This document shows, piece after piece, positions 12,837 through 62,716 of a stretch of 64,000 bases of DNA. The notes beneath the pieces are model-generated. The model saw only the letters and a list, made by a program, of their open reading frames with translations. It searched no databases and had not been told where the DNA came from. The stretch spans positions 28,354-92,353 of IMG/VR virus record IMGVR_UViG_3300035210_000102; one strand, given 5' to 3'. A program made the position numbers and the translations under genes. The stretch is from a virus (taxonomy: Duplodnaviria > Heunggongvirae > Uroviricota > Caudoviricetes). The first letter of the stretch is position 1; every line of letters starts with the position of its first letter.

Positions 12837-12957
12837 CCTGGGTTCTCATCATCTTCCTGAGTAACTTCGCGACATCCGTCGATTTTGACTCAAAGGAAGC
12901 CTGCCATGCCGCGCAAAAGGCGATCACGCAAATCAAGAACGGCAACCCGTCCTCGGT

Positions 12958-24281: not shown

Positions 24282-24331
24282 CCACACTCGTTGCCTACTG
24301 CATTCCATCTGGAGACACGTGGAAAGCGGAC

Positions 24332-43393: not shown

Positions 43394-43400
43394 GGCTACA

Positions 43401-43880: not shown

Positions 43881-43895
43881 TACGGGCCAACGCTC

Positions 43896-46800: not shown

Positions 46801-47396
46801 GCGCGCGCGTCGATACCACCCTCCCCGTGCCGGCAGTTGCGGCAACTGGCTTCGGCGAGATGCCGCCGTCAAAGCAGGACATCAAGGATCTTCGAATGAA
46901 CCCGGCCAACTGGCGCAATTTCGATTCTCAGTTCGGCGACGGCGCCGCAGCTCGAGCGCTCATGTCGCCGGATGCCCAGTACGACAAGTCGGCCTATTAC
47001 CCCGGCAATTCAGGGGGTTACGACCGGCCAATCAGAATCGGACATCAGCTGTCCGCGGCCACCCGAAAAGAAGCGGCCAACTTTACTGGACGCAACCCGG
47101 TAAGCATCGATGAGATCAGGCAGCAAGCAGGATCGGGCGCCGATCCGATGGTTCGGCCAAGTGCGAACTACATGCCGGAGCCGGAAGCTCAAAGCCTCCC
47201 TCGTTGGGCTGGAATATCTCGTCGTGACATGCCGCAAACAGAAAAATCCAGCACTGAAGAGCCCGCAACGCCGTTTGGCGGCCACACAGCCGGCGGCTAC
47301 ACCATTGGCGGCGTCAAGCCGATCGGTAGCGGACAACGTTTTGGAGGCAAACGTTATGGCGCCTCCGCAATACCAAAAACTATGGAAGCGCAATAA
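43896..47396 (+). CDS. large virion protein with peptidase-M15 (VanY/D-Ala-D-Ala carboxypeptidase-like) and lysozyme-like regions
   Basis: ITGYRNDQEQHDAI...SRHSVKGENGDPSGEAVDI...PVHFQ resembles the M15 zinc-ligand pattern. The size and position resemble ejection-type (gp15/16-like) proteins. Confidence 0.55.
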   Translation: MVKLPDQFSLGEIPDPYVRVPVPTASEVDAGAIGRAMQHFGSAVGDVSTALANHQNQNNALELAKADTAYKVGIAGLSESLANDPDPDTHVQRYNEGEAALRQQSKSMFSKPEKGDLWEQHAIPHGVNTGIGVGRYANGLIKERQSGEFDDTFKSALTHFYANPTSENLTALEHHVDNGEHSGLLNPKTARQYRADINSAMNGVYLGVGAPTAQPQSNMPGGAPGIAPPPANETIEAQGGEPTEQKPDQSRLVSAPAKPTMQPTQVSTAPEQPAQSSVDYLAPYAGKSNIKDLNPDFRQRVVSALSDMPENLRSTIRITGYRNDQEQHDAIVRHLRAAGMPVTQANLERGIPGVVAGLDFNPDGSYTSRSRHSVKGENGDPSGEAVDITGSDAAMAWLHRKGFGTQYGFENPANLRGSDPVHFQMTGGAGQDFSSRTGGVINAPTRQAIADVSGAYGFKPGVLPSLINLESGWNTKNSTGSYSGLTQMGKDTFDEAGGRLAGLTYSQYLNAGPADQIKAYGAWLQHYGFSDKMQRNGIDFANLPPEKQAAVLQAFQFGPNDERWMEAAGRGDWHTPVTNTKQADALGDTSLSVMSQYYGGQVRIASAQTGTATDASRAPRSLSDPALPDGPQVDMSKVPDWMRERRSPFEIQQLERIRQSQVAKVDDAVREQAESSIRNDIARLKDGVPVAKNEAGLASIDALRDRFQGPKGQAKISKLGREWNVAQYEHNLKAPLTGMSYSDGMAWIANNDPRKLDSKDFDYEDAKVAHDEVQHYFEQLHKVRNDDAARSVSGFQISKMSNGAGIVPPAPEVQAAMEEARTGGTRQFDGSIIPYTHQQRWGVLFKGRLAAQEKAGLDEGQQRVLTVPESEQLLNMDISHIPDGNLLTEKLDEAAARAKVWFGPENAERGLRDAIAVMMHKTEQRDAATNALSELATYRTLQPATIAALQNQSKLDPLSQYIRRQQVMGARVDTTLPVPAVAATGFGEMPPSKQDIKDLRMNPANWRNFDSQFGDGAAARALMSPDAQYDKSAYYPGNSGGYDRPIRIGHQLSAATRKEAANFTGRNPVSIDEIRQQAGSGADPMVRPSANYMPEPEAQSLPRWAGISRRDMPQTEKSSTEEPATPFGGHTAGGYTIGGVKPIGSGQRFGGKRYGASAIPKTMEAQ

Positions 47397-50300
47397 TGAC
47401 TGACAACCAAGGTTACGGCGCGCAACTCAACGCGCTTGTCAGCGACGAAGAAGCGCCTCCGATTACGGCGCAAGAGCTGCTCGGCGATCAAACCTATCAG
47501 GCCGTAAAGCTTTGGCAGCAAGACCAAGAACAGCGGTCGCTCCAGCAAGCAATTCAAGGGTCGGCGGATAATGCTGCGCGTTCGCAGCAGAACTTCGCCA
47601 TGCCCGAGCATCACACGCTGCGCGAGCCGCACGAGCGCCCGGTCACCGTGCCGAGCCCATTTGGCATGCCGGGCTCCCCGAACATTGAGCGCAATACGGC
47701 AGGACCCGTGCGCGCCCAGCCGGCCGAGACCGGAACACCAATCACGCCGCCCTCGGCCGAACAGACGGCTGGCGGGTCCGTTGAGGCAACGAAGGGCCTC
47801 GAGGAGCGGCAGAAAAAGGGCGAGCAGCTCGCCGCGCAAGCCGCTTCCGCAAAGCAGCAATTCGACAAAGCCACCAAAGAGCTCGAGTATTTCGATCGCC
47901 AAGCCGCGGCGCAAATGCAAGCCGAGGAGACTGGCGCGCAGCCGACGCAAGACTTGAACGCTATGCGCGCCAACATTGAAAACCGCGTGCGCAATGCGTG
48001 GGCGTTGTACGCCTCGGCCGAGCACGAGCAGGCGCAACACGAATATGCCGCCGCGCATACCGGCAAACCCATGCCGATGCCCTGGACGGCTGCGCTGCAG
48101 GGCCTTGTCGTCGGCAGCGTGAAAAAGCCCCAACAAACCTTGGAAGCGTTGCGGCATCAAAGGCCGACACCGATCGAGGAAAGCCCGGCCGCTCAGCCAA
48201 TAGAACTCGGCTGGCCCTCGCTGTCGGGCATTTCAAAGGGCTTCTATGGATTGGGCGAAAGCGCCCCCGAAATGGGCGGCGGCATCTTTGGCGCTATGCT
48301 CGGAAGCGAGTACGGCCCGCTCGGAACACTCGCAGGAACCGCCGGCGGCGCGGCTTTTGTCAACAGGCTTAAGTCGTTCGGCTCGTTCTATGAGCAACGC
48401 CTAAACGAAACGCCCGACAACCCGGACGCCGCCTATGTGAAGGCGATGGCCGACGCGCAGACATCTTCGCTATTCACCGGCGCGGGCTGGGCGCTCTTTG
48501 CTGCCAAGCCGTTCCAGAGCGAAATCCGCAATGCCCTGATGCAATCTTTCGGCGTGCAACCGAGCGTCGCGGTTATGGAGCGGATGACCAATAACATTCG
48601 CGACAACAAGCCGCTTTCAGAGGGGACGCAAGAAGCCTACACGCAGGGCGTGTTCGGCGTTGCTCCGCTTATGCTGGGCCACGTCGCCATAAACCGCATA
48701 ACCGGCCACACACCGACCCAAGGCACGGACGGGCGCGGCGCCGCGCGGCCAACTGTCGAAATGGCCTACCCTGGCGCCGGCCTGCAAACGATGGAAGCCG
48801 GCGTTACCACGCCCGAGCTGAAAGCCCCCGCCGAACCGCAGGCAATCGCGCCAAGTGCAAACGCGCAAGCCAGGGAAGGCGACGGCGGCCCGACGCTGCC
48901 GACAACTCCCGAAGCGCAGGCGGTATCTGCCGGCAACGAAAAGCTGAAAGCCGGGATTGAGGGATGGCAAAAACCGGCGGACGCCACGGAAGCCGCAGCG
49001 CCCGTAGAAGCACCGGCCGCGCCGGCAGAAGTCAGCACGGGTACGGAATGGCGTGACATCGCGAAGGCAGGCGAGCCGGGCGTAAAGCTTCCGGAAGCGC
49101 CAGCCACGGCGCCGGCCTCCCCTTTCGACGCGCTCTATAATAAAGCCGTCGACCTCGTTCGCACCGATAACAGGCCGAGCGCCAACTACCTGCAACGCAA
49201 GATGGGGCTTGGCTATATTCCGGCGTCCGAGCTTATGGCGCGCATGGAAAAGGAAGGCGTCGTAAGCTCGCCGCATCCAACGACCGGGCGCCGCCTTGTT
49301 CTCCCGCCAAAAGTGCAGGAACCTGTCGCACAACCTGAACAGCCGCAGACGGCCCCGGCGCCGATCGCGGCCGAGGCGGCGCCTGTCGCCATGCCGATCT
49401 ATTCCGGCCCTGCATCTGGCTTTTCGAATGTCGACATCTCGCGCGTCGGTGACCGCATTGTCGTCAAGGGCACTGACACCAGCGGCCGGCCGTTTACGCA
49501 AAGCTTCAACGAACAAGACTGGACCGGCGGGAACACCGGACAGGCAAAATGGGAACGGCTCACAAGCGCGCAGCTAAAGGAAACGCCCGAACAGATTATG
49601 GCGAAAGGCGCCGCCCAGTTTCAGAACTCAGCCAAAAACTACCCACCAGTAAAGCTGGCGGGCATATATCGAGGTCTTCGCCAGCATATCGCTAATGTCG
49701 AGCTCACCGTGAATGACCCGGTAGAGCGCGCCCGCCAAGCCGGAACGGGCATGATCGAACACCTCGAGGAGCAACTTGCCAGTATGAAGGGCTGGGTTGG
49801 TGCTTACGAGGCACGCGAAGCAATTTCCCCTACCCTCAAGCGCCTGCCCTCCGCAATTCCGCAGTCGGAGCTTCCGCCCGCATACAGGAACCCGCCGAGA
49901 CAGGCGTGGCTGCGCCCCGAAAGAGCGCCAGAGCCTTACGAGCACAACTACGCTTTCGGCCCCGACGATGAACCCTGGCGGCGCACCGACGCGCCGTACT
50001 ATAGCGGCATTCCCGACACGGCCGATATCCGCGGTGGGCCGAAATATCGAAACATCGCCGAAAACCCGAATGCCGAGCCCGGCCGACCCGACCTCGAGCG
50101 CGTATTCGGTTGGAATACAGTCGCCGAAAATCCGAAAGCAGAGCCGGGCGGGCCAAGCCTTGTCAGGCCTCACCGCTGGAATACCATCGCGGAAAACCCG
50201 AACGCAGAGCCCGGCAGTCCCGAAGTCAAAGGTAAGCCCGGCCTTTCCGAGCGCATAAGGGACGCCCTTGTCGGCGCGGCTAAGCGCCTGAAGGAGATGG

Positions 50301-53300
50301 CGACCGGAAAGACGGAAGCACACGAAGACCCGGTTGCCGAGGCGATCGCGACTTCGCTGCATGAAGACGGGCAAACGCCCGAGCAAATAAAGGGAAAGTT
50401 GGATGAGCTCGAGCAGCACATTACCGCCGGGGCTGAAGAAGAAAAGCCACAGCAGCAGCCAGGGGATGGCAGTGGGGCGGCAGAAACACACGAAGCCGGG
50501 AGCGGGAGCAATGCACCCACAACACCTGAAAGCAGTGGCGAACGGCCTACGGAAGATGTCGAACAACACCCCAGCGATGCAGGAGCAGGCGAACAAGCTG
50601 GACCAGATGGCGCAGGAGCAGGAGCAGGCGAACCAAAACCCGCAGCCGAGCTCACCGATGCCGAACGAAACGCCTTCGACGCCATCCTTGCCAGCCGCGC
50701 CAAGCAATCCGAATGGGGATCAAAGCTCGGAGTCTCTGCTGACGATCTAAAGCGCTATATCGAGGACGCGGTTCGCCGCGGCAAACTGCGCGAGGCCGAC
50801 CGCAACGGCATCTATCGCCGCACGCCGAAAGGGAAGGAAAAGCCGGCCGAGACGCAGGTGCCACAAACGCCGGCCGACATCGCCGACCTGATGGCTGACA
50901 ACGTCTTGCCCGCGGTCCCGGTTGATGAAGCGGGATGGAAAGCACTCATTCCGCAGCTTGTTGACCGCTACACAAAGGCCGCCTACTCGGTTGAGCAGGG
51001 GCAATCCGACGCTGCCTACGCACGCACTATGATGGGCGAGATGTATTATTTCCACCGCGGCGCAACGGAAACGGGCGCCACGGAAGCCGCGAATACATTG
51101 ACGGTCATAGGTCAGCGACTGTATCAGGCGATGGAAGCCGCCGAACGTCGCGAAGCGCTTGATGGCCCGCTTGATGAAAGGCCGCCAGAGAAGCCAGCCG
51201 AGCAGCCGCCGGCGCCGGCACCTCAAGACGAAACGCCGCCGGCCGACCTACACGAGCGCTTTGTTGCGCATGTGAAGGCGCGGCTGATCGCGGGCGAACG
51301 CCCCTTCAAGAATATCATTGAGGCGCGGCAGCTCGCGAAAGCCCTCGGTCTCGAATTCCCGGAAAACACATCCGCCAACAAACAGGTCGACGAGCTCGTT
51401 GAACGCGCCGTTGTCGAGGCCGCCCGCGTTGTGGTTGAGCACGGCCGGGCCGAGGGCGCGCCGTCCGATGAAATATATGAACGCATGGTCAAGCTGTACG
51501 ACAATCAGCCAAACCTTGCCACGCGCACCGGCAAAAGCATTTCTGAGCAAGCGTACTCTACGCCGGCGCCGCTCGCGTATGTCGCCAGTCGCCTTGCAGG
51601 TATTGACGCCAACACGCGCGTGCTTGAGCCAACAGCAGGCAACGGCATGCTTCTCATGGAAGCAACGCCGAAGCATGCGCGCGTCAACGAGATCGATGCC
51701 ACGCGAGCGAAGGCGCTCGAGGCGCAGGGCTTCCAGGTCACCAAGTGGGATGCAACCGAAGCACAAACCTTTGCGGGCACCACTGGCAAGTATGACGTCG
51801 TAATCACCAACCCGCCCTTCGGCGCGGTGAAAGTTGGCGGCAAGTCCAAGGTGTTCAAGGCGCCCGGGCTCAATACAACGAACATTGACCATGCGATTGC
51901 ATTGAATGCGCTGCAAAGCATGAAGAGCGATGGCCGGGCCGTGCTAATCGTGGGTGGCGTAAAGGCCGACAGCCCGGCAGAACGTGCCGCGGGCTACGGC
52001 AGCGCCAAGCGCAAATTTTGGAATCAGCTGCTGACCAAATATAAGGTTGCCGACGTTTTCACCGTCGATGGCGACCTCTATGCAAAACAAGGTGCGGGCT
52101 GGCCTGTCGATGTTATTGTTATCCATGGCAAGGGCAGGACGGAAGGTTTCAAGCCGCTAACGCTGGAAGCACCGCCGCTCCTGAAGTCATGGGAAGAGGT
52201 AGGAGAAAGACTTCGTGGAACAGAAAAACAAGAAACCCCTGTCGGACCAGGACTACATGGAGACAGTGGCGGCAAGGGCCCTGAAACTCCTGGAGGAGAG
52301 CCCGCAACCGATGGACCTAATGCGCTGGGCGGATCGTCGTCTGGTGGCGGAGGGGCTGGAGAACGGCAGCCCGGCGGAAAAGACGCCGGAGGCGTGGGTG
52401 GACCACGTGATATCCCAGAACCTGAATCTCCGGGACAACCTCCATTGGGTGAGAAGCCGGGGGAGTCAGCCGGAGAAAGCGGAGACGTTCGAGGACCTGA
52501 TAACGGCCTTCATCCCAACGGAGGGGGGCCTGTAGAAGAACGGCCGACTGAAAAGCCGCCAGAGCGGCCGGCGGATTACGGCTCTAAGAATACGCTTATC
52601 ACAAAGGAACGCGCGGACGCTGTTCGCGAGCGCTTGCGGCAGAAGCTTCGCGAGTCCGGTTCACAGCTAAACGCCGGTATTGACCCGGAATTTGTGCAGC
52701 TCGGGACCGAACTTGCCGTGTTCCACATCGAGGCCGGAGTTCGGAAATTCGCCGACTTTGTCGCGGCAATGACGCAAGACCTTGGCGCCAAGGTTGCTGA
52801 CCTGAAGCCCTACCTGCGTTCCTGGTATAACGGCGCGCGGGACATGATCGAGGATCATGGACTTGACACCGAGGGGCTCGAACACCCCGATGTTGTGCGC
52901 ACCGAACTGGATCGGCTGATCGCCGAAGAGGTCGCGCCAAAAAAAAACCAGGCGCCCCCACCGCGCGAAAAACTCGCCATCAACGAAGGCGACACACAAA
53001 CCCCTTACATGCCTGTCTCTAAGGTCAAAGACAGGTTGGGCACATTGCTGCCCGCCAATTTGCACAACGCGACAAATGAAGCGCTCGACCGTATTCAGCG
53101 CGAGCACGGCAGCATCGATCACTATGTTGCCAATGGGCTCGGCCGAGACCCGATGGAACTTGGCAAATGGTTCGCGCAAGAGCAGGTCGACGCTATCGCC
53201 CTGGCAATGGACAACCTCGAAAGGGGCGGCTCGCTAATCCTCGGTGATCAAACCGGCATCGGCAAAGGGCGTGTCGTTGCGGCGATGATCACCTACGCCC

Positions 53301-56300
53301 GCAAGCGTGGCCTTGTCCCCGTCTTTGTAACCGAAAAGGCCGACTTGTACGGCGACATGTGGCGCGACCTGCACGACATCGAATGGGATAAGCAGCTCGG
53401 CCGTCCCATCGAAATGATGATGACAAACTCAGAGATCAAGGTTCCTCTCGATGAGGCGGCGGTGGCGTGGACCCTAGAGCGCGACGAGGCAAAGGCTGAA
53501 GGCATGCCGCTGCCCCCGCGTTTCGGGCAATTCTCCCCTTCCCAAACCCTCGACATGTCGCGCGACAACATGATGGCGCTTCGGCGCGGCGAGTCGAGCC
53601 CTGACGTCGTGTTCACGACCTACAGCCAAATGCAGAGCACCAAGGGGCAGGAGAACGATCGCCGGGCCTTCTTGCTCGACATCGCTCCTGCGGCATTCCT
53701 CATAATGGATGAAGCCCATAACGCCGGCGGCGGAGCGAGCGCTAACGAAAGGGGCACGCCGAAAGGCAAGGCGCCCCCAGCATCAGAGCTGTTCCGCGAG
53801 GCCGTCAATCGCGCCTCGGCGGTCATGTATTCATCGGCGACTTACGCCAAGTCTCCCAACGTCATGACGCTGTACTCGCGCACCGACATGGCAAAGGCGG
53901 TCGAGAAGGTCGACCAGTTGCCGGGCCTGATCGCTCGCGGCGGCGTGCCGTTGCAACAAATCGTTGCCTCGATGCTGGCGAAAGCCGGGCAGTACTTGCG
54001 CCGCGAGCGTTCCTTTGAGGGCGTCGAGTACAAGCAACAGACAGTGCCCGTCAAAGAAGAGGCCTACCAGGAATTCACGCACGGCGTCAGCGGCATCTTC
54101 CGGTTCGATCTTGGTTTTGCAAAAGAGCGCAAGGAAATCGCGAAGAAGATGGCCGCGGCCGAGTTTGGCGGCACAGCAAACGACAACGCGATCGGCGAAC
54201 CGTCCGCGTCTTCCACTTCGTTCTCATCGCTCATGCACAACGTCGTCAATCAGATGGTTGTCGCTATGAAGGTTGAGCAGGCGGGCGATGCGGCGATCGA
54301 GGCGCTGAAGCGCGGCGAAAAGCCGGTCCTCACCCTGTCACGCACGAACCTGTCTTTCATCAAGCAGTTCCGCGAAGAGCAGGGCTACGAGATGGGGCAT
54401 GCGCTGCCTATCGGCTTTGCGGACATCCTACACCGCTACCTCGAACGCACGCGGCGTGTGACGCTCAAGTCTGCCGCCGGCGAAAAAGTGCACAAAATGA
54501 TTGCGCTGGAGGACATGTCTCCTCGGGCGAGGGCGCGCTACAACGAAGTCGCTCAACTCCTCCGCGAGGTCGAGCTCGGCGACCTGCCTATTTCGCCGAT
54601 CGATGCGATCCGGAACAAGATCACACAGGCCGGCTATAGCGTGCGCGAGATCACCGGGCGCAGTGAGATGCTGGATTATTCAGCACGCGAGGAAACGGAA
54701 GATAGCCTCATCGGCCAGGGCTTTGTCTTCGAAGAGCCTGGGAAATGGAGGGACCTGCCGAACCAGCCGAAAAATCAAAATGAGTGGCTGATAGCGACCG
54801 AAAGCGGCTCGGTTATGGCGCATGCTGCAACAAAAGAAGCAGCAATCGCGGCCTACAATAAGAAGTACGCCAACACAGACCCGATCGTGGTCAACCGCCC
54901 GGCAGGCGAACAGGGCGCGCAGGGCAAGGCGGTCACCAAGCAGATGTTCAATGACGGCAGCCTGGACGCCATCATTCTGAACAGCTCAGGCTCGACCGGC
55001 ATATCGCTGCACTCCTATTCGAAGTTCAAGGACCAGCGCCGCCGGCACATGATCATTGTCGAGCCGGATGCGAATATCGACACGCACATGCAAACGCTCG
55101 GCCGTGTACATCGTACCGGGCAAGTCATTCCGCCGATCTACACGCATTTGACGGCCGACATCCCGGCCGAGGTGCGGCCAACAGCTGTGCTTATGCGCAA
55201 GATGGCGTCGCTGAATGCCAACACGACAGGCGCGACCAAGTCGCATGTGTCGGGCGAGGCGGTCGACTTCCTGAACAAATACGGCGATCAGGTCGTTTTG
55301 GAAGCCCTTATCGAAGACCGCGAAATTGCGGATCAGCTTGGCGTCGACCCCGAAGGCGACTTCGAAGGCCTTGCCGCCAAAGCGACCGGCCGCTTAACGT
55401 TGCTTTCGCCAAAAGATCAGAAGACGTTTCTTGATGACATCTCGCAACGCTATACGCGGTTGATTGCGGCTCTCGACGCCACTGGCGCGAACGACCTCGA
55501 GGCGAAGTATCTCAATTTGCAAACACGCATTCTTGAATCGCAGGAGCTGAAGCCGGCAACCGGCGATTCCCCCTTCCAGGAAGCGGTCAAGCTCGACAAA
55601 GTTTCGATCAAATCGCAAGGCCGCGCAATGGCGCCCAGCGAAGTTGTTGAGCGCATCGAGAAGGCGACCAAGAGTAAGGCCGGCGGCGATGGTTTCGCCC
55701 TTGACATGGCGATGCTGCAGAACAAAGGGCGGGACGTTCAGAACAAGCTTGCGCAGGATGTCGACGTCAAAATCGACATGCAAATCCAGGCTATCCGCAA
55801 GGCGATGAAAGACCCGGAAGCGGCACAACGCGCGGTGGACAAGATCCTCGTTGATAAGCGCAAGTGGCGCATGCTGGCGAGCATCGTGTATCCCGGTGCC
55901 CGAGTCGATCTTCACCTTGAAGGGGAAACTGTTCCGGCGATCGCTATCGGATTAGAGCAAACCAAAAACGCCAAAAACCCCATCGCGCTGTCGACCTGGA
56001 CAGCACTATTCGCACTCCCTGACAGCCGTCGCACGCTGGGTGTGCCGCTGTCGAAGCTGGAAGAAGGCGAAGTGATTGTCGATGTCGGCGGGGAAAACAG
56101 CAAAGACATCCATGTCACCCACGGCAAGACTAGCTTTGCTAATCTCGAGGGGATGTTCGAAGCGGCCCGCAAAGAAGGGCGGGAAACCCGCTACATGCTG
56201 TCGGGCAACATTTTGGCTGGCTTCAGCGAGACGCAAGGCGCCGGCCAAATTGTGATGCACTCGCTCGAGGACGGCACGGTGCAGCCCGGCATCTTGATGG

Positions 56301-59300
56301 CACGCCAGTTCAAGCCCAAGGATTTTCTCGAGAACCGCGCCGTGCGTTTTGCAAGCGGGCGGCATGTGCTCGACTTCTTCAAGGAGTCGACAGCCGGTGA
56401 AGTGGTCTCAAGCGACAAGATCGTCACCATCCGACGCGAACCGCAACGGTGGGGGCCGCCGAACTTCGAATTCGAGATGCCCCCTGCCCGCGGTGTCGGC
56501 GGAAAGTATTTCGGCGATCAGCGCGTGCGTGACATCTACGACAATTGGCAGCGAAGCCACGGCAAGATGCGGGCAACCGTGGACGCCGCGATGGCCGAAA
56601 ACCTCATCGACGCCATGCGCGACATCGGCGCGAGCTTCGAAACGCGCACGGAACAGAACCTTGCGAACAGCTCCCGCCCGGCCGAGAAGCCCGTGGCGTC
56701 CTTTGGTGCCGGCGGGCCCGACATTGCGGCAGCCGGCGGCAGGCAGATGATCGACCCGCACACGGGCATTGATGATGTAAAGGAGCTGCTGGCTGCGGGC
56801 CGGACCGCGGTTGTGCACCCCGAAATGACAGCGGCGGTGCACGATGTTCTCACTCGCATGAAAAACGAGATTCCGGCGGAGATGCAGGCCGGCGCGCTGG
56901 TCGCAATCGACCCGATCGGCAAGACGCGGGCTCGGCTGCGCTTCACATCACCGGACGGCGGGAAGTTCTCAGTTGTTGTTGAGTCTCGTTTTGCGGCTAG
57001 TTACCGTGCCCTCTTTGATAGAACGTCCAATTTCGTCTTGGGCATCCTTCATGCTCATGGGGCCGATGGGAGCGCCTCCGAAAGCATCTCGGAAACTCTG
57101 GCCGGACGGGTCAGGCATGAGATCGTTCACTTTCTGAGAGACACCGGGCGCTTTTCCGCGGGTGAGTGGAACCGGCTTGTTGATCATGCGAATAAACTCC
57201 ATCCTTTGGATTGGTCGGCGAAAGCTTGGCTTACGGCATTGCGCGATCCACTTGCAGAACACGCGCGGCATGACGAAAGTCACCGTGATTGGTACGAAGA
57301 TTATTATAAGCACCTCTCGCCCGAGGAGCTACAGAAAAAGCTTGACGAAGAGCAAGTGGCCCATAGCGCTGAATTCTTGTCAACTCTGCTTGACATGGAC
57401 GAGAACGATCCTTTCCGCCAAGAATACTTGCCGCATTTCGACGATGTCATGGACATCTACGGCAAGCTTTTCTCCGGAGAGCTCGCGCGGCGCCTGCCGG
57501 AAGACGTGGCCGACCATAATTCAGAACCCGGCGAGCTGCCCTCCCCTGCCCTCGCTGGCGGTCCGGCCGGCGCCTACACGCTGTCGGCACTCAACGACAA
57601 AAACTCGCCGGAATTCTCCGAACTGCGTAAGGCGCTCGCCGGCGCCCGACGCCTGTTGAGCCTGACGGAAACGTCCGGCAAGCGCGTCGGCGCGGCCAAA
57701 GATAGCTACGCCTATCAGCTCGCCGACACGTTGTCGCTTATTGCTGAGAAAGGCGCGGACGCCCTTGACGCAAAGATGGGCCCCGAGTTTACGGCGCTGA
57801 AAGAGTTGCACCGCGACGAGCTCGAGCTGCTCGCCCCGAGCGGTTCCGCGGACCCCTTGCAAGATGGCTTCCACGCATTCATGCGGTCCTATATCGAGGA
57901 GTCCGACGCCCTACAGAAGGCGGTTCCGGAATTTTTCGAAGCTTTCGAACATCACGTCGAGCATGAAGCTCCGAAACTTTTGGAAAATTTGCAAAAGATA
58001 CAAGAGGCCCTCGGCGTCGGCGGCACGCATCACCTATTAACCTCCGTTCTGTCGGACCCGCACTTCAGTGGAACATTCGGCGTGGATCGCGCCGAGCTGT
58101 TTGACCGGCTTGGTAGGGCGGCCGACGCCTACAAAACCGCGAATGACGGCTACGAGAACGTCAAGGCCGACGTGACAGCGGCAAACGACTATCTGAAGGG
58201 GCTGCCGGCCGACCAGCGGAGCTATGTGCTCTTCAATACCGACCGACACGTCATGCAGGCGCACCCCGTCATCCGCGCGAACAAGATCGCCAACATCATT
58301 CACCAACTCGCGAACGCCCTCAACCTGGGGCAACTGCGCGACACATCGCAGGGGCGCACCGCGCCTTACATCCAGCTTCCGCCGGAACGCGCAAAGGAGG
58401 TCTACAACCTGCTTCTGCAGCATGCGGGCGTCGAGCTGCACAACGCCATGTATGCGGCCGGGCATCCGGGATACAGCGGCGCCGGCAAGGTCAACCCGCG
58501 CGTCACATTGGCGGACCTGAAAGAAGCGTCACCGGCGGTGCGTGCCGAGCTCGATCGCCGGCTGAAGCGTGCCAACATCCAGAAGCCACTCGTGGTTGAT
58601 CGGTTTTACCCGCTCCTCGCCAAGCATATTGAGCATACATGGCAAAGCGCCGCAGCGTCCGATCAATTATTTCGCGCGCAGTTCCGGCCGAGCCGTTGGC
58701 AGCGGATTTGGAAGGCGCCCGCGGGCTTTGTCCAGACCCCGAACCAAGGATTCCAGCCACCGCAGACGCCCGCCGGTGGCGCGTATGGCCCGGCAGGCGT
58801 ACCGAAGAAGCCGAGCCATTTGGCCGCCAAGATCGCCGAGTCTTTCAAGCGCACGATGGCGCCGGAAAGCATTTCGGAAGATGCGCTGAAGGCTGGGCCG
58901 CGCTTCAAGGAATTCAATTCGCTCACGCAGCAAGGCAAAGACGCGTTCGTCAAGCTGTTCGATAACTACCACAAGGCCTGGAACCGCATCTCGGATGCCG
59001 ACCAAATCCGCTGGCTCGGCAACTTCGAGCGCGGCACATGGGACAATATGAACCCATGGGAGCGCGAGTTCGCCGACCTTGTGAAGCCGTTGATGGACTG
59101 GGCCTACGACACCGAAAGGGACTACGGTTCCAAGGCGGCCTATCGCGAGAACTATCTCGCCCACATGTGGGAGCTGGGCGATCGCGTGACCGAACATTTC
59201 AACTCGGTCGCCACACAAAACCGGCTCGGCCCCACTTGGTTTCAGAAAGCCCGCGTGTTCGACTTTGTCGATGAAGGGCTGGCGGCCGGCTACAAACTAA

Positions 59301-61528
59301 AGACTACGAACCCGGCCGAGATCATCACCAAGCGGTTGATGGCCTCGATCGACATGCAAGAGCGCATGAAGCTGCTCGCCGACCTGCGCGATACTTACGG
59401 CTTGGCGGCCAAAGCCAAGGGCGCCCCGCCCGTTCTGGACAAGCTTGGGTGGCGAGAGATCAGCGCGCCTGATCGCGAGAACTGGCTGCTCCATCCCGAC
59501 CTTTTGCCAACATGGGATAACGTGTTGGCCCAGACGGGGTGGTGGGGCTCGCAAGGCTGGGGCGGCAGTATCTTCCGCGGCTGGATGGGCCTGAAAGCGC
59601 TGTGGGTTCCGATCAAGCTTGCCGTCAGCGGCTTCCATCCGCTGCACGTTGTCGGCATCAATTGGGCCGCGCACGTCTCGCGCGGGCTGCACAGTTTCTA
59701 TGGCGCCGCGACAGCCACGAAGACGGTGACACGAAAGGTGGGCGGCGCCACCGTTGTCGAGTCTCGTGTAAGAGATCACGACAAGGCGGGCAAACTGCTG
59801 CAGATGGCCACCACCGATCTGTTACGCAGCCTTGACCCGATGGGCCTGCGTTATGCCGCGAAAGGCGGGGAGAATAGCGGCTGGTATGCAAGGCAGGCCT
59901 GGGAAATCCCCGAAAAGGACCAGACGCCCGAGCAGCGCGCTATCGTCAAGCGCATAGCCGAGATGGGCCTTGTGCCTCAGATGCCCGAAGAAATGCGCGT
60001 CAACTCAAAGCGTGCCTTCTCCAATGCAATGCACGACGTTCGCGAAGAGTGGTCGAAAAATTGGCACTCATGGGACAGCATGAAGGCTCAAGGTGCACTT
60101 GGGTTTGCTGGCGCAAAGCGGGTTGTGGAGCATGGCGGCATCGCCGGCGCAATCGTTGGCGGAAGCATCGGCGGCATCCCTGGCGCGCTGCTCGGCGCCG
60201 CGGCTGACATCGGAATCCGCCGCTTCATCTTTGAGCGCTGGATTCCGGCCATGAAAATCTCGGCCGCCCTTCTCGATGACGCGGCCATGGCCGCACGGCA
60301 TCCGGAAATCTACGCCGACGACATTCAGCGCAAAGTGGCGCGTGAGGCGATCGGCGAGCAGAACGAGAACCGCTTCGGCGAGATGTTCCACAAAAACCTG
60401 TTTTGGGACAAGAAGCTGCGCGAGACGCTTACCGGCGTGTATCTGTCGATGCCCTGGCAGCTCGGCTTCCTTCGCGAGCACCTCGGCGCGCCGATCTCGG
60501 CCGTCGCGCGTGTGTCGGATGCTGCGCGCGGTTTAGTGACCGATCACAAGCCTACAGAGACAAGGGCGACGATCCGCGCGGCGGAAAACAAACTGCTCTA
60601 TGTGCCCGTCTATTTGCTCGGCGGCGCGATGGCGGCGGCGATGATCCAGTATTTTCGCACGGGCAGTCTGCCGGACCCCTACGACCCGCTCAGTCTCGAT
60701 TGGCAAATGCCCAAAGTCGGAGGGAACAACGCTGATGGCTCACCGCGGCGCGTGTCGACGATGTGGTACAACCGCGAATATGTCGCCTGGATCAAACACA
60801 TGCAGGAGATGGGCGGCGGCGTGAGCGGCGCGTGGCAGGGCACTAAGGAGATGAACTGGAACAAACTGATGCTCCAGCCGCTCTGGGAAATGTACACGGG
60901 GCAAGACTATTTCCGCAACGAGATCAGAGATCCGCACGGCACGCTTCCGGAGAAGATCGGACAGACGGCACGCTCGATCCTTACCGAGCAGCTCAGCCCT
61001 ATGTCGTGGACGAACGCACAGCAGGCGTTGAAGTCCAGCAGCTCGCCGGCGTCTGACGTCACCCTATCGCTCCTCGGCTTCGGCCCGGCTCCGGCTTATG
61101 TGTCGCGCACGGCAACACAGAACCGCATCGCCTATCTCTATCGCGAGTACAATCAAGGTGCTCGGCCCTACTCTGAAGTCGAGATCGCGAAATCGAAGAG
61201 AGACGCCCAGTCGGCCTACGATGCCGCCAAGCGCATCGAAGACCCGGCAGCGCGGCGCGCGGCAGAACAAACCGCCGTGGAGAAGATGCACGCGGTTGGC
61301 GCCAAAATCCGATCCAAGGATTTCGACGTGACCATGTTTTCCAAACTGCCTCCGGCCGATCAGCTCGCCATCCTTGAAGAAGCAACGCCGGCCGAGGCGA
61401 ATAAATACGTGTCGCGCGTCAACAAGAAGCTTTACGGAAACCCGGATTTCTGGGCTTTGAGGAAGACTATCACCGGCGCCGCGAAGCAACCGAAGCCGGT
61501 CGGCGACGCAAGCTTAGCTTTGCGTTAA
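47396..61528 (+). CDS. giant 4710-aa multidomain protein: FtsK-gamma-like wHTH, N6-adenine DNA methyltransferase, SNF2/DEAH helicase, HExxH region
   Basis: Single uninterrupted 14.1-kb ORF. Motifs seen: LQRKMGLGYIPASELMARMEKEGVVS (FtsK-gamma-like); VITNPPFG (MTase motif IV) with upstream LEPTAGNG; GDQTGIGKG Walker A; MDEAHNA (DEAH); LGRVHRTGQ (motif VI); HEIVH. It is DarB-like in architecture. Confidence 0.7.
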   Translation: MTDNQGYGAQLNALVSDEEAPPITAQELLGDQTYQAVKLWQQDQEQRSLQQAIQGSADNAARSQQNFAMPEHHTLREPHERPVTVPSPFGMPGSPNIERNTAGPVRAQPAETGTPITPPSAEQTAGGSVEATKGLEERQKKGEQLAAQAASAKQQFDKATKELEYFDRQAAAQMQAEETGAQPTQDLNAMRANIENRVRNAWALYASAEHEQAQHEYAAAHTGKPMPMPWTAALQGLVVGSVKKPQQTLEALRHQRPTPIEESPAAQPIELGWPSLSGISKGFYGLGESAPEMGGGIFGAMLGSEYGPLGTLAGTAGGAAFVNRLKSFGSFYEQRLNETPDNPDAAYVKAMADAQTSSLFTGAGWALFAAKPFQSEIRNALMQSFGVQPSVAVMERMTNNIRDNKPLSEGTQEAYTQGVFGVAPLMLGHVAINRITGHTPTQGTDGRGAARPTVEMAYPGAGLQTMEAGVTTPELKAPAEPQAIAPSANAQAREGDGGPTLPTTPEAQAVSAGNEKLKAGIEGWQKPADATEAAAPVEAPAAPAEVSTGTEWRDIAKAGEPGVKLPEAPATAPASPFDALYNKAVDLVRTDNRPSANYLQRKMGLGYIPASELMARMEKEGVVSSPHPTTGRRLVLPPKVQEPVAQPEQPQTAPAPIAAEAAPVAMPIYSGPASGFSNVDISRVGDRIVVKGTDTSGRPFTQSFNEQDWTGGNTGQAKWERLTSAQLKETPEQIMAKGAAQFQNSAKNYPPVKLAGIYRGLRQHIANVELTVNDPVERARQAGTGMIEHLEEQLASMKGWVGAYEAREAISPTLKRLPSAIPQSELPPAYRNPPRQAWLRPERAPEPYEHNYAFGPDDEPWRRTDAPYYSGIPDTADIRGGPKYRNIAENPNAEPGRPDLERVFGWNTVAENPKAEPGGPSLVRPHRWNTIAENPNAEPGSPEVKGKPGLSERIRDALVGAAKRLKEMATGKTEAHEDPVAEAIATSLHEDGQTPEQIKGKLDELEQHITAGAEEEKPQQQPGDGSGAAETHEAGSGSNAPTTPESSGERPTEDVEQHPSDAGAGEQAGPDGAGAGAGEPKPAAELTDAERNAFDAILASRAKQSEWGSKLGVSADDLKRYIEDAVRRGKLREADRNGIYRRTPKGKEKPAETQVPQTPADIADLMADNVLPAVPVDEAGWKALIPQLVDRYTKAAYSVEQGQSDAAYARTMMGEMYYFHRGATETGATEAANTLTVIGQRLYQAMEAAERREALDGPLDERPPEKPAEQPPAPAPQDETPPADLHERFVAHVKARLIAGERPFKNIIEARQLAKALGLEFPENTSANKQVDELVERAVVEAARVVVEHGRAEGAPSDEIYERMVKLYDNQPNLATRTGKSISEQAYSTPAPLAYVASRLAGIDANTRVLEPTAGNGMLLMEATPKHARVNEIDATRAKALEAQGFQVTKWDATEAQTFAGTTGKYDVVITNPPFGAVKVGGKSKVFKAPGLNTTNIDHAIALNALQSMKSDGRAVLIVGGVKADSPAERAAGYGSAKRKFWNQLLTKYKVADVFTVDGDLYAKQGAGWPVDVIVIHGKGRTEGFKPLTLEAPPLLKSWEEVGERLRGTEKQETPVGPGLHGDSGGKGPETPGGEPATDGPNALGGSSSGGGGAGERQPGGKDAGGVGGPRDIPEPESPGQPPLGEKPGESAGESGDVRGPDNGLHPNGGGPVEERPTEKPPERPADYGSKNTLITKERADAVRERLRQKLRESGSQLNAGIDPEFVQLGTELAVFHIEAGVRKFADFVAAMTQDLGAKVADLKPYLRSWYNGARDMIEDHGLDTEGLEHPDVVRTELDRLIAEEVAPKKNQAPPPREKLAINEGDTQTPYMPVSKVKDRLGTLLPANLHNATNEALDRIQREHGSIDHYVANGLGRDPMELGKWFAQEQVDAIALAMDNLERGGSLILGDQTGIGKGRVVAAMITYARKRGLVPVFVTEKADLYGDMWRDLHDIEWDKQLGRPIEMMMTNSEIKVPLDEAAVAWTLERDEAKAEGMPLPPRFGQFSPSQTLDMSRDNMMALRRGESSPDVVFTTYSQMQSTKGQENDRRAFLLDIAPAAFLIMDEAHNAGGGASANERGTPKGKAPPASELFREAVNRASAVMYSSATYAKSPNVMTLYSRTDMAKAVEKVDQLPGLIARGGVPLQQIVASMLAKAGQYLRRERSFEGVEYKQQTVPVKEEAYQEFTHGVSGIFRFDLGFAKERKEIAKKMAAAEFGGTANDNAIGEPSASSTSFSSLMHNVVNQMVVAMKVEQAGDAAIEALKRGEKPVLTLSRTNLSFIKQFREEQGYEMGHALPIGFADILHRYLERTRRVTLKSAAGEKVHKMIALEDMSPRARARYNEVAQLLREVELGDLPISPIDAIRNKITQAGYSVREITGRSEMLDYSAREETEDSLIGQGFVFEEPGKWRDLPNQPKNQNEWLIATESGSVMAHAATKEAAIAAYNKKYANTDPIVVNRPAGEQGAQGKAVTKQMFNDGSLDAIILNSSGSTGISLHSYSKFKDQRRRHMIIVEPDANIDTHMQTLGRVHRTGQVIPPIYTHLTADIPAEVRPTAVLMRKMASLNANTTGATKSHVSGEAVDFLNKYGDQVVLEALIEDREIADQLGVDPEGDFEGLAAKATGRLTLLSPKDQKTFLDDISQRYTRLIAALDATGANDLEAKYLNLQTRILESQELKPATGDSPFQEAVKLDKVSIKSQGRAMAPSEVVERIEKATKSKAGGDGFALDMAMLQNKGRDVQNKLAQDVDVKIDMQIQAIRKAMKDPEAAQRAVDKILVDKRKWRMLASIVYPGARVDLHLEGETVPAIAIGLEQTKNAKNPIALSTWTALFALPDSRRTLGVPLSKLEEGEVIVDVGGENSKDIHVTHGKTSFANLEGMFEAARKEGRETRYMLSGNILAGFSETQGAGQIVMHSLEDGTVQPGILMARQFKPKDFLENRAVRFASGRHVLDFFKESTAGEVVSSDKIVTIRREPQRWGPPNFEFEMPPARGVGGKYFGDQRVRDIYDNWQRSHGKMRATVDAAMAENLIDAMRDIGASFETRTEQNLANSSRPAEKPVASFGAGGPDIAAAGGRQMIDPHTGIDDVKELLAAGRTAVVHPEMTAAVHDVLTRMKNEIPAEMQAGALVAIDPIGKTRARLRFTSPDGGKFSVVVESRFAASYRALFDRTSNFVLGILHAHGADGSASESISETLAGRVRHEIVHFLRDTGRFSAGEWNRLVDHANKLHPLDWSAKAWLTALRDPLAEHARHDESHRDWYEDYYKHLSPEELQKKLDEEQVAHSAEFLSTLLDMDENDPFRQEYLPHFDDVMDIYGKLFSGELARRLPEDVADHNSEPGELPSPALAGGPAGAYTLSALNDKNSPEFSELRKALAGARRLLSLTETSGKRVGAAKDSYAYQLADTLSLIAEKGADALDAKMGPEFTALKELHRDELELLAPSGSADPLQDGFHAFMRSYIEESDALQKAVPEFFEAFEHHVEHEAPKLLENLQKIQEALGVGGTHHLLTSVLSDPHFSGTFGVDRAELFDRLGRAADAYKTANDGYENVKADVTAANDYLKGLPADQRSYVLFNTDRHVMQAHPVIRANKIANIIHQLANALNLGQLRDTSQGRTAPYIQLPPERAKEVYNLLLQHAGVELHNAMYAAGHPGYSGAGKVNPRVTLADLKEASPAVRAELDRRLKRANIQKPLVVDRFYPLLAKHIEHTWQSAAASDQLFRAQFRPSRWQRIWKAPAGFVQTPNQGFQPPQTPAGGAYGPAGVPKKPSHLAAKIAESFKRTMAPESISEDALKAGPRFKEFNSLTQQGKDAFVKLFDNYHKAWNRISDADQIRWLGNFERGTWDNMNPWEREFADLVKPLMDWAYDTERDYGSKAAYRENYLAHMWELGDRVTEHFNSVATQNRLGPTWFQKARVFDFVDEGLAAGYKLKTTNPAEIITKRLMASIDMQERMKLLADLRDTYGLAAKAKGAPPVLDKLGWREISAPDRENWLLHPDLLPTWDNVLAQTGWWGSQGWGGSIFRGWMGLKALWVPIKLAVSGFHPLHVVGINWAAHVSRGLHSFYGAATATKTVTRKVGGATVVESRVRDHDKAGKLLQMATTDLLRSLDPMGLRYAAKGGENSGWYARQAWEIPEKDQTPEQRAIVKRIAEMGLVPQMPEEMRVNSKRAFSNAMHDVREEWSKNWHSWDSMKAQGALGFAGAKRVVEHGGIAGAIVGGSIGGIPGALLGAAADIGIRRFIFERWIPAMKISAALLDDAAMAARHPEIYADDIQRKVAREAIGEQNENRFGEMFHKNLFWDKKLRETLTGVYLSMPWQLGFLREHLGAPISAVARVSDAARGLVTDHKPTETRATIRAAENKLLYVPVYLLGGAMAAAMIQYFRTGSLPDPYDPLSLDWQMPKVGGNNADGSPRRVSTMWYNREYVAWIKHMQEMGGGVSGAWQGTKEMNWNKLMLQPLWEMYTGQDYFRNEIRDPHGTLPEKIGQTARSILTEQLSPMSWTNAQQALKSSSSPASDVTLSLLGFGPAPAYVSRTATQNRIAYLYREYNQGARPYSEVEIAKSKRDAQSAYDAAKRIEDPAARRAAEQTAVEKMHAVGAKIRSKDFDVTMFSKLPPADQLAILEEATPAEANKYVSRVNKKLYGNPDFWALRKTITGAAKQPKPVGDASLALR
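50050..50240. repeat. three imperfect tandem repeats (63/66 bp) inside giant ORF
   Basis: Encodes N.(I/V)AENP.AEPG.P...W three times. Confidence 0.55.
52939..52947. repeat. A9 homopolymer tract inside giant ORF
   Basis: gcgccaaaaaaaaaccagg in a ~64% GC background. It sits between the MTase and helicase domains. Confidence 0.6.
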
Positions 61529-61600: not shown

Positions 61601-62716
61601 TTGGATTCTCCGATGGCTGCGAGCAATTACGAGCGCTGCCTTGCCATTACATTGAAATGGGAAGGCGGCTATTCCAATCATCCCGACGACCCGGGCGGCC
61701 CGACGAACTTCGGCATCATCCAGCGGGAATACGACAAGTGGCGTGTGGCGCATGGGCTTCCTGCGCGTTCTGTCCGTTATATCGAGGTCGGCGAGTATCG
61801 CGACATCTACCGTAAGGAATACTGGGATGTGGTTGGCGGCGACCAGCTGCCGGCCGGGTACGACCTTGCCGTCTTTGATGCCGCGGTAAACAACGGAACC
61901 GGCCGCGCGCGGCAGTGGCAGGCGCAATACCCGAACGATATCGACAAATTCTGCGATGCGCGCCTCGCCTTCGATCAGCGCCTCGGCCGCCTTTGGCGCG
62001 TGTTCGGCGCGGGCTGGGCGCGACGCATCTCTAGCATCCGGCTTGCGGCGCATGCGATGGCCGAACCGAGCACCTACACACCGCCACCGCCCGATGACAC
62101 CGTAAGATGGGCGCAGGGTGTTCTATGCAAAATTGGCCTTCCCTGCATCGTCGATGGATACGACGGGCCAAAGACACAAGGCGCCGTAGTGCTTTTCCAA
62201 TCCACGCATGGGCTTAAGGCGGATGGGCAACTTGATCCGAAAACCATTGCGGCGCTGAAAGCTGCAATCACCCCTCCACCGGCAAAAGCTCCGGCATTCA
62301 ACCCCTTCACCATTTTCTTTGGCACCATCGGAAAGGTCATACACATGGTAACGAGTACCGTGGCAGCCGCCACAACCATTTCGCCCGAGGCGAAGGCTAC
62401 TGCGCAAGGCGCCGTGGTTGGCACGAAGTCGATCGCCGGCACACTCACGAGTTTGTTCGGGAGCGGCATTTTTGCGACCGCGGCAGGCATCTTTGCCACC
62501 TTGGCGCCCACGACCACGCTGGCCATCCTTTCGCTTGTCGCGGCGATCGGTGCCGTCGTCAACGCGATCGGCCACGGCCTACAGGCGATCGGCGTCATTC
62601 GGGCATCGGACGCGGCGACATACGTCATCATCGAAAACCTGCTGAATGAGGTTTCGCAAACGCTCGGCGGCAAGAAGGTTGTGTCCGACTTGGACCCTAC
62701 GCCGGCGACGGCGTAA
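61601..62716 (+). CDS. endolysin: GH108 N-acetylmuramidase + PG_binding_3 domain with hydrophobic C-terminal extension
   Basis: LKWEGGYSNHPDDPGGPTNFGI (GH108 signature with the catalytic Glu), then GYDGPKTQGAVVLFQ..GLKADG (peptidoglycan-binding). The final ~130 aa are Ala/Thr/Gly/Ile-rich and hydrophobic. Confidence 0.7.
   Translation: MDSPMAASNYERCLAITLKWEGGYSNHPDDPGGPTNFGIIQREYDKWRVAHGLPARSVRYIEVGEYRDIYRKEYWDVVGGDQLPAGYDLAVFDAAVNNGTGRARQWQAQYPNDIDKFCDARLAFDQRLGRLWRVFGAGWARRISSIRLAAHAMAEPSTYTPPPPDDTVRWAQGVLCKIGLPCIVDGYDGPKTQGAVVLFQSTHGLKADGQLDPKTIAALKAAITPPPAKAPAFNPFTIFFGTIGKVIHMVTSTVAAATTISPEAKATAQGAVVGTKSIAGTLTSLFGSGIFATAAGIFATLAPTTTLAILSLVAAIGAVVNAIGHGLQAIGVIRASDAATYVIIENLLNEVSQTLGGKKVVSDLDPTPATA

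Follow-up and report, generated by a model that had tools for sequence, protein, structure and literature searches.

To our knowledge, only a few models (T7, P22, and N4/DEV) have made clear how short-tailed phages bring DNA and proteins across the envelope of Gram-negative hosts. Phage polyvalent proteins, which are large, multidomain, and predicted to be delivered together with the DNA, have been catalogued module by module; their parts include a DNA methyltransferase (MTase)-SNF2 dyad, a zincin metallopeptidase, and an FtsK winged helix-turn-helix, and a model of methylation in cis has been proposed (Iyer, Burroughs, Anand, de Souza & Aravind 2017, PMC5512222). Some large phage proteins have also been located in virions. 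For instance, JC1 gp69, which has 4,515 amino acids (aa) and takes up 22% of its genome, is virion-associated and yielded 51 unique peptides by mass spectrometry (PMC9144972), and phi24B gp47 (2,811 aa), whose domains are LPD5, LPD1, LPD38, and a MuF-C metallopeptidase, has been reported as an abundant virion component and proposed to be an ejection protein (2026 preprint). Here, we studied a 64,000-nucleotide stretch of an uncultured short-tailed phage (positions 28,354 to 92,353 of IMG/VR record IMGVR_UViG_3300035210_000102; hereafter, the window), in which one open reading frame (ORF) on the forward strand, 47396-61528, encodes a predicted protein of 4,710 aa that we refer to as the giant. 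Judged by homology, the giant is a family protein, which we call the chassis, present as two ends (aa 205-468 and 3800-4690) with ~3,350 aa of cargo inserted between them. The cargo contains an FtsK-gamma domain, an N6-adenine MTase, a conserved 135-aa domain, an SNF2 ATPase of the Strawberry-notch (Sbno) type, and an HExxH zincin. The parts of the giant, the three genes directly upstream of it (40051-47396), and the gene directly downstream (61601-62716) lie on the forward strand, and coordinates are those of the window.

The C-terminal part of the chassis (the C-module, aa 3800-4690, pI 9.3, at 58793-61465) defines a large family. An exhaustive HMMER scan with aa 3511-4710 against cluster representatives returned 1,997 representatives at E ≤ 1e-3, including 312 at E ≤ 1e-30. 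Proteins carrying the module span 465 to 4,989 aa, and in all of them it ends within ~20 residues of the C-terminus (median tail 19 aa). The module, ~880-890 aa in length, has no Pfam or PHROG model. A scan of IMG/VR with the single C-terminal sequence found nothing, and a profile was needed to recover 102 loci, in which the median carrying ORF encodes 1,369 aa and just ~6 of 80 reach at least 3,000 aa. In ten minimal members of 1,118-1,242 aa, a gap of only ~10-130 residues separates an N-domain from the C-module behind it, and aa 205-468 of the giant (48008-48799) are homologous to this N-domain, as seen by tblastn, by phmmer (independent E-values of 1e-25 to 1e-36), and by profile and alignment. 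In the giant, unlike in the minimal members, the two parts are 3,330 aa apart. A profile of the N-domain matches the minimal members, one separate upstream ORF (at locus L015, described below), the giant, and almost nothing else. Because N-domain and C-module together make up one ordinary ~1,200-aa family protein, aa ~470-3800 of the giant are an insertion. A first-pass annotation, made by a model from the letters of the window alone, had described the giant as a string of enzymatic modules; the modules are there, but the description missed the first ~470 and the last ~900 residues, which are the halves of the family protein.

The size of this family emerged only with sensitive searches. Word-indexed searches had wrongly suggested an orphan C-terminus (one match for aa 3301-4710 and none for aa 2851-3550), and tblastn of aa 3201-4710 against phages gave no match; the suggestion was overturned by HMMER, and reliance on the fast word-indexed search would have led to false calls of orphan status in this case.

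The insertion is itself composite. The closest relatives of the enzymatic core, P0002 (2,256 aa) and P0003 (2,663 aa), match aa 1265-3099 at 51-55% identity and end there. Further, free-standing proteins encoded in two Alphaproteobacteria metagenome-assembled genomes (MAGs; loci L014 and L015) align with aa 3132-3364 and with aa 3385/3441-4685, and consist of zincin, middle region, and C-module, so that the last ~1,580 aa of the giant correspond to a complete free-standing protein type; at L015, an 806-aa ORF with the N-domain stands before the ORF with zincin and C-module. The order of parts also varies, with the 135-aa domain found at the other flank of the MTase in phage BS-TP4 and in contig L007. 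FtsK-gamma is common to three independent giants of the family, and another relative, P0001, carries LPD38.

Since the blocks of the giant exist elsewhere as separate genes (the two ORFs of L015, and P0002 and P0003 with their ends at aa ~3100), and since the giant comes from a single metagenome assembly and forms a singleton cluster, one may ask if two or three adjacent genes were fused by sequencing errors or by chimeric assembly. We regard such an artefact as highly improbable. The ORF starts with ATG and runs for 4,710 codons with zero internal stops over 22.1% of the window, exactly the uninterrupted frame of about 22% that the first-pass annotation had reported, while the alternative forward frames contain 115 and 135 stops; at the composition of the ORF, the probability of an open frame this long is ~8e-66. 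GC content is higher at the third than at the second codon position in all 200-codon blocks, with the exception of a Gly/Pro linker, and this uniform codon-position signal over 14.1 kb is accompanied by no composition shift at block boundaries. For errors to fuse three genes in frame, several exact coincidences would be required. The JGI gene caller independently predicted the same 4,710-aa product on the 92,353-bp metagenome contig, where it is listed as a "hypothetical protein" and is a singleton cluster at 90% identity. Unbroken homologous ORFs of 4,153-4,989 aa on independent contigs also weigh against an artefact, those of 4,153, 4,689, and 4,989 aa having the same layout of cargo and C-module, and cultured phages have sequence-verified ORFs of 4,600-5,400 aa. 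We conclude that the giant ORF is a real single gene, coding throughout, with a predicted product of 514 kDa, a pI of 5.9, and zero cysteines (Cys). Self-BLAST of the giant revealed no internal duplication, Tandem Repeats Finder reported one trivial repeat, and no close DNA relative of the ORF turned up among 50,697 phage records by megablast. A promoter and terminator scan gave signals at chance level only, and a search for terminal repeats of the window found none.

That the giant would be among the largest known phage proteins, as had been proposed, is true in a loose sense, but it is no record: BS-TP4 gp3 has 5,391 aa, POI1126 gp30 4,841 aa, Bcep22 gp75 4,602 aa, and Parlo gp81 3,764 aa, and the metagenomic relatives of the giant reach 4,989 aa.

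The first residues of the giant form an acidic leader that is low-complexity or coiled by composition (aa 1-204, 47396-48007) and for which no homologues were found. The chassis N-domain behind it is rich in glycine zippers, has a hydrophobic segment at aa 414-437, and bears the motifs PMP, SPAAxP, PDNPDAAY, FGVQP, NKPLSE, and MLGH. The first recognizable piece of cargo is a predicted double-stranded DNA (dsDNA)-binding winged helix of the FtsK-gamma type (aa 578-633, pI 9.7, at 49127-49294; Pfam PF09397, E 3e-12), which scores 46.6-48.9 bits against a Pfam cut-off of 30.6. FtsK gamma chains (2ve8, 2j5o; E 4.5e-5) were the sole match when the giant was searched against PDB sequences, and the segment recurs, at 38-47% identity, in P0159 and P0143. 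In the stretch 50033-50275, a 22-aa unit with the core (I/V)AENP(N/K)AEPG occurs three times in tandem (at aa 888, 910, and 932; aa 888-938 correspond to 50057-50210), which gives no tandem-repeat signal at the DNA level. A small basic domain beyond them (aa 1078-1150, pI 9.6, at 50627-50845), detected in other polyvalent giants by BLAST (P0153, P0147) and phmmer (L017), is possibly a second winged helix.

The enzymatic core begins with a predicted gamma-class N6-adenine DNA MTase (aa ~1289-1576, 51260-52123; Pfam UPF0020, N6_Mtase, Eco57I), in which motif I (EPTAGNG, aa 1411) lies upstream of motif IV (NPPF, aa 1472) and which is 54% identical to P0002 and P0003. UPF0020 and N6_Mtase stay below their cut-offs when the whole protein is scored and exceed them in a scan of a 700-aa piece with this region (UPF0020, 25.6 bits with a cut-off of 22.3; N6_Mtase, 21.6 bits with a cut-off of 20.4); the MTase is also the single, weak match of the giant to NCBIfam. 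An acidic linker rich in Gly, Pro, and Glu (aa 1600-1720, 52193-52555; 74% P/E/G/S/Q/K/T), visible as a dip in third-position GC content, leads to the conserved ~135-aa domain (aa 1722-1857, 52559-52966; phrog_10089, E 2e-42), which is without a Pfam model. The latter provides the only clear homology to the giants of Bcep22, Parlo, POI1126, SopranoGao, and Ralstonia phages (44-53% identity), is conserved to the same extent in PBC5, in Bacteroides phages, and in Microcystis phage Mwe-JY07, and is, by these alignments, the most conserved single piece among otherwise unrelated giant phage proteins. Directly after it comes a SWI2/SNF2 ATPase (aa 1860-3100, 52973-56695), which contains inserts, is extended at its C-terminus, and is recognized by AAA_34 at aa 1938-2225 (E 1e-22; 80.4 bits against a cut-off of 27) and Helicase_C_4 at aa 2512-2639 (E 5e-22; 79.2 bits against 30.5). 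Its motifs are intact (GDQTGIGKG at aa 1949, PLPPRFG at 2038, DEAH at 2105, and motif VI, QTLGRVHRTGQ, at 2566), and it is 52-55% identical to P0002 and P0003, both of which end at its C-terminal boundary. These domain matches class the ATPase as Sbno type and not as DarB type.

A zincin-like metallopeptidase domain follows (aa 3128-3380, 56777-57535), with HEIVH at aa 3241 and a conserved acidic helix downstream of it. Although ~0.18 HExxH motifs are expected by chance in a protein this long, this one is kept in seven of eight homologues, and its conservation indicates that it is not a chance occurrence. The domain is homologous to the N-terminal part of the free-standing L014 and L015 proteins, and the region has no Pfam peptidase match. 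In the helical middle region (aa 3400-3790, 57593-58765), aa 3446-3538 form a degenerate zincin-like repeat, in which EKGAD takes the place of HEGGH in the alignment with P0001. The C-module behind it consists of two halves (aa 3800-4215 and 4275-4690) joined by a Gly-rich hydrophobic loop at aa 4243-4279; it has a second hydrophobic helix at aa 4400-4418 and the motifs LSxFHPLHV, WIPxLK, DNRYGEM, GGxNPDGSPRR, and GFGPAPxY. A Pfam scan of the giant in 700-aa pieces at E ≤ 1 gave no LPD, MuF, or portal match. The motifs singled out in the first-pass annotation (NPPF, GDQTGIGKG, DEAH, QTLGRVHRTGQ, and HEIVH) and its FtsK-gamma segment are thus all in place, with Pfam matches for FtsK_gamma, AAA_34, and Helicase_C_4.

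An AlphaFold2 (AF2) model of the C-module, computed with an alignment of 30 sequences, is mostly helical and has a mean predicted local distance difference test (pLDDT) score of 80.2 and a predicted template modeling (pTM) score of 0.81; the Gly-rich hydrophobic loop (aa 4228-4272 in the model) is poorly ordered in it. The module has no counterpart in the PDB, including in a sequence-profile search. By contrast with the PDB, a fold search of BFVD with the model gave 22 matches at E ≤ 1e-3, among them proteins of Ralstonia phage Alix, E. coli phage PTXU04, and Cellulophaga phage phi19:3. Every match is a C-terminal piece of a phage polyvalent protein for which LPD, ART-PolyVal, RelA/SpoT, helicase, or LT_GEWL domains are annotated. 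With hhalign, the C-module was further linked to the last ~300 aa of Bcep22 gp75 (E 1.4e-4) through the aligned motifs PRxGGxNPDGS and NxDYFGxEI.

The giant thus has much in common with the phage polyvalent proteins. It is large and multidomain and is encoded among virion genes, with terminase, portal, head, and tail genes upstream and an endolysin gene downstream; its C-module matches predicted structures of LPD-annotated proteins; and co-delivery with the DNA, which is predicted for that class, is suggested for the giant by its gene slot and Cys depletion. The combination of MTase, SNF2 ATPase, zincin, and FtsK winged helix is already known from these proteins (PMC5512222). The differences are that the Sbno ATPase of the giant is called infrequent in that work, that the giant has no detected Pfam LPD, MuF, or portal domain, and that its ~1,150 aa of end modules match no Pfam or PHROG model. 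Cargo inserted within a carrier is not described there, and the word cysteine occurs zero times (PMC5512222). The only cultured-phage protein with the MTase-Sbno core is gp3 of Bacteroides phage BS-TP4 (30-36% identity over aa 1277-2968), which differs in having four Cys and in being placed before the portal gene. Two metagenomic proteins, P0159 (4,689 aa) and P0163 (4,153 aa), have the same order of MTase, Sbno ATPase, and C-module and are Cys-free; P0159 also has FtsK-gamma, and endolysin and holin genes follow it. A profile of the chassis N-domain detected no such domain in BS-TP4 gp3, P0159, or P0163, all three of which are annotated as hypothetical proteins.

The gene order of the window runs from small terminase (TerS) through large terminase (TerL), portal, head, tailspike, and tail genes to a cassette of three genes and an endolysin gene. 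The cassette is preceded by the gene for a 976-aa tail protein (40051-42981; phrog_376). Its first gene (43401-43880; phrog_418, E 1e-12) encodes a small internal virion protein of 159 aa with an N-terminal hydrophobic helix (aa 4-22), the analogue of T7 gp14 and DEV gp73. The second (43896-47396) encodes a medium-sized partner of 1,166 aa for which we found no homologue in phages (tblastn), PDB sequences, Pfam, PHROGs, or NCBIfam; by position, it corresponds to T7 gp15 and DEV gp72, and it is likely to be a periplasmic tunnel protein of the gp15/gp72 type from a new family. The giant is the third and largest. Its ATG overlaps the stop codon of the partner gene (TAATG), and the overlap suggests translational coupling of the two. 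A muramidase/endolysin-like gene follows (61601-62716; phrog_315, E 4e-36; NCBIfam NF040573), homologues of which directly follow the family gene at loci L025 and L028. The minimal member at L025, for example, stands after virion/tail genes, an acetyltransferase gene, and the gene of an 811-aa protein, and directly before a phrog_315 endolysin gene homologous to that of the window; P0159 and P0143 are likewise trailed by lysis genes. The upstream partner gene shows no sequence conservation across family loci apart from a weak link between L010 and L011. The first-pass annotation had placed the giant behind internal-virion-type genes, and the phrog_418 protein and the 1,166-aa protein directly upstream bear this out.

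All three products of the cassette lack Cys (0 in 6,035 residues), whereas 34 other ORFs of the window contain 121 Cys in 11,923 residues (1.01%). For the giant alone, the probability of zero Cys is ~1e-21, and position-specific base composition predicts ~51 Cys codons. T7 gp15 and gp16, N4 gp50, Bcep22 gp75, Parlo gp81, and POI1126 gp30 also have zero Cys. The trait is family-wide: 133 of the 150 best family representatives are Cys-free, and 80 viral ORFs with the C-module contain nine Cys in 118,334 residues. For homologues of gp71 in N4-like phages, a Cys content of 0.00075% against 0.865% proteome-wide has been reported, and the scarcity has been attributed to passage via the periplasm (Lokareddy et al. 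2024, PMC11445570). Since this signature has already been published for ejection operons, we take its presence here as independent support for ejection and not as a new discovery.

The 159/1,166/4,710-aa triple behind the tail protein mirrors T7 gp14/gp15/gp16: the genes follow the tail tubular protein in matching order, the products lengthen along the cassette, T7 gp15 and gp16 likewise contain no Cys, and the small protein is hydrophobic. T7 gp16 differs in having 1,318 aa and an N-terminal transglycosylase, whereas here a muramidase is encoded by a separate downstream gene; homology to T7 gp14-16 was rejected, there being neither sequence nor fold similarity. The virion RNA polymerases (vRNAPs) N4 gp50 and DEV gp71 offer a second parallel (PMC11445570). 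They, too, are Cys-free giants (3,400-3,500 aa), the third in a small/medium/giant cassette (gp73-gp72-gp71), with membrane-interacting segments, an embedded nucleic-acid enzyme, an HExxH-bearing C-region, and a proposed action on the entering genome. Their cargo, however, is an RNA polymerase instead of MTase and SNF2, and homology to N4 gp50 was rejected because no sequence relationship was found. Ejection of N4 vRNAP has been shown experimentally, whereas for the giant we infer it. The three-gene cassette thus stands where T7 has gp14/gp15/gp16 and N4/DEV have gp73/gp72/gp71, within a T7-like structural module that is deeply divergent.

On this basis, the reading that we favor, and hold to be probably correct, is that the giant is an ejection protein packaged in the virion and, at the same time, a carrier of DNA-handling enzymes. 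Packaging and ejection had been called probable in the first-pass annotation, a view that gains from the gene position and from the total lack of Cys, as in T7 gp15/gp16, N4 vRNAP, and the Bcep22/JC1 giants verified by mass spectrometry. We infer not only packaging and ejection but also topology, enzyme activities, and anti-restriction function, and the proposed sequence of events is as follows. The giant would be packed in the head and pass through the tail to the envelope in unfolded form; such threading is our proposal for why Cys is completely absent. The chassis would then refold in or against the inner membrane and contribute to a DNA conduit, with the cargo facing the cytoplasm, where FtsK-gamma and the small basic domain would bind the entering dsDNA. 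The Sbno SNF2 ATPase could track along the entering genome using ATP, and the N6-adenine MTase could methylate it in cis ahead of host restriction, following the model for DarB-type proteins, in whose dyad methylation has been proposed to depend on the ATPase (PMC5512222). The zincin might act either in self-cleavage that releases the cargo or in cutting peptidoglycan.

The enzymes by themselves would also fit another role, namely that of a head-packaged anti-restriction passenger of the DarB type with no part in a conduit, whose ends are packaging or targeting signals. The dyad of MTase and SF2 ATPase is the DarB design (PMC5512222), the PHROG label of the 135-aa domain reads "DarB-like antirestriction", and the polyvalent-protein literature views such proteins as injected effectors. 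P1 DarB likewise has an N6-adenine MTase (motif I EPSAGTG, compared with EPTAGNG in the giant) and then an SF2 ATPase in one polypeptide, is virion-associated, and protects DNA in cis, as the giant would by our reading. DarB, however, is a myovirus protein of 2,255 aa with nine Cys and without chassis modules, FtsK-gamma, or zincin, and in BLASTP and phmmer comparisons its similarity to the giant is marginal (pairwise E 0.005-0.03 over ~140 and ~60 aa, in the MTase only, at 24% identity), whereas Bcep22 gp75 and POI1126 gp30 match P1 DarB at E ~1e-19. Membership in the DarB family was rejected on these grounds; at the level of domain classes, the giant shares the DarB design without belonging to the family. 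The resemblance to DarB noted in the first-pass annotation therefore survives for domain classes and not for homology, and the ATPase is of the Strawberry-notch type.

P1 DarB also needs the partners DarA, Hdf, and Ddr; no DarA, Hdf, DdrA/B, or Ulx annotation was seen among the scanned ORFs of the window, in which no dedicated search for such homologues was made. As for the ends, the ~1,200-aa chassis exists free of cargo, is conserved in ~2,000 clusters, and is without exception encoded in the last virion-gene slot, and ~1,150 aa are too long and too conserved for a mere packaging tag. We therefore consider a mere passenger unlikely. A further comparison is provided by the "DarB-like/PLxRFG" giants of ~60-kb podophages (Bcep22 gp75, JC1 gp69, Parlo gp81, and POI1126 gp30; 3,764-4,841 aa, ~22% of the genome), which, like the giant, are the last virion gene before lysis, have zero Cys, and are preceded by Cys-free virion proteins. 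They differ in their DarB-type MTase and helicase and their N-terminal lytic transglycosylase, and their phages have a P22/933W-like structural module, compared with the T7-like portal here.

The intact ATPase motifs also allow for a motor that internalizes the genome, in which an anchored SNF2 translocase and an FtsK-gamma clamp would pull the DNA in and methylation would be a by-product. The design parallels that of DEV gp71 (membrane segments, an enzyme acting on nucleic acid and driven by nucleoside triphosphates, a C-domain with a zinc motif, and a Cys-free operon), for whose RNA polymerase core, as for that of N4, similar pulling has been proposed, and FtsK-gamma recurs in the three family giants. 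No RNA polymerase gene was noticed within the 64-kb window, although ~28 kb of the contig lie outside it and beyond this observation. The motor must nevertheless be dispensable for delivery in the family, most members of which (median 1,369 aa) are without an ATPase; the closest core relatives, P0002 and P0003, are without a chassis, and dyads of SNF2 and MTase are common on plasmids, where no pulling is needed. We judge this motor to be quite unlikely.

Several points weigh against an ejection protein with enzymatic cargo. The hhalign link to Bcep22 gp75 is weak (probability 52%). For the zincin fold, a single-sequence AF2 model of aa 3081-3660 is unreliable (pLDDT 38); in it, three strands precede the helices, the second of which bears HExxH, an order compatible with a zincin. 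Only two segments have a Kyte-Doolittle mean above 1.4, one of which is Gly-rich and poorly modeled, and membrane insertion is uncertain for this reason. A 514-kDa chain with an internal insertion of ~370 kDa would have to be folded, packed, and threaded. Finally, family members are also found in small integrated elements (L009, L014, and L015) with no capsid genes nearby, which the ejection model does not obviously predict. At L009 (contig SRR11658478_19764), a Cys-poor C-module protein is encoded beside an integrase, an HTH_17 protein, and an AAA_25 replication protein, and at L014 (6652-12544) and L015 (3831-12448), C-module proteins are encoded in the chromosomes of Alphaproteobacteria MAGs. 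In all three, the gene stands after a small-terminase gene and one for a mid-sized protein, and the elements may be satellite-like, with an ejection protein of their own.

The remainder of the window is that of a tailed phage. TerS lies at 6754-7389, TerL at 18098-19666, the T7-supergroup-type portal gene at 20110-22827, the major head protein gene at 33344-34183, and the tailspike gene at 37447-40047. The portal is ~26% identical to those of Pelagibacter podophages and other T7-like phages, and this low identity places the phage, whose structural module is T7-like, on a deep branch; identity as a Bcep22-like phage was rejected because the portal is T7-supergroup-like. The N-terminal anchor region of the tailspike (37690-38010) shows 38% identity to 13778-15982 of contig L007, on which the MTase-Sbno protein P0002 is a separate 2,256-aa gene between genes for 1,371 and 917 aa.

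Between TerS and TerL lies a cluster for biosynthesis of a nonulosonic-acid-type sugar (7891-16092), with a PseB-like Polysacc_synt_2 dehydratase (7891-8739, E 2e-75), pieces of a DegT-type aminotransferase (8736-9449 and 11853-12836), a PIG-L deacetylase (12958-13671), NeuB with SAF (13668-14696, E 1e-70), and WbqC (15382-16092); a glycosyltransferase-like gene is found at 24128-24889. The cluster may serve modification of virion or host-surface glycans. Genes for tRNA-Thr(TGT) and tRNA-Met(CAT) are present at 5287-5362 and 16471-16548, respectively. The adjacent ORFs 26-622 and 635-1126 have 45-nucleotide 3' tails (578-622 and 1082-1126) that are 89% identical, and by this similarity they may be paralogous small genes. 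A 63-nucleotide tandem duplication (79% identity) is located at 28189-28314, inside a 792-aa ORF (26024-28402).

What is new here is the anatomy of the giant, the boundary between carrier and cargo, and the exposure of a large uncharacterized carrier family; the kind of protein and the kinds of enzymatic modules are not new. The locus connects the polyvalent-protein class with the ejection-protein cassette, and it shows a carrier part (N-domain and C-module, with ~2,000 clusters and no Pfam model, PHROG, or solved structure) to be separable from exchangeable cargo. A bolder extension, to which we give little credence, is that the Cys-free ~1,200-aa family is a general ejection chassis of podophages, in which inserted FtsK-gamma and SNF2 would form an envelope-anchored ATP motor while the MTase marks the genome. 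If true, the N4/DEV vRNAP ejection motor would have a counterpart that works without transcription, on a chassis that tolerates thousands of inserted residues. Deletion or exchange of the cargo would give a handle on anti-restriction, and the chassis may represent a new component of the conduit by which phage DNA crosses the envelope and a possible vehicle for engineered protein delivery into bacteria.

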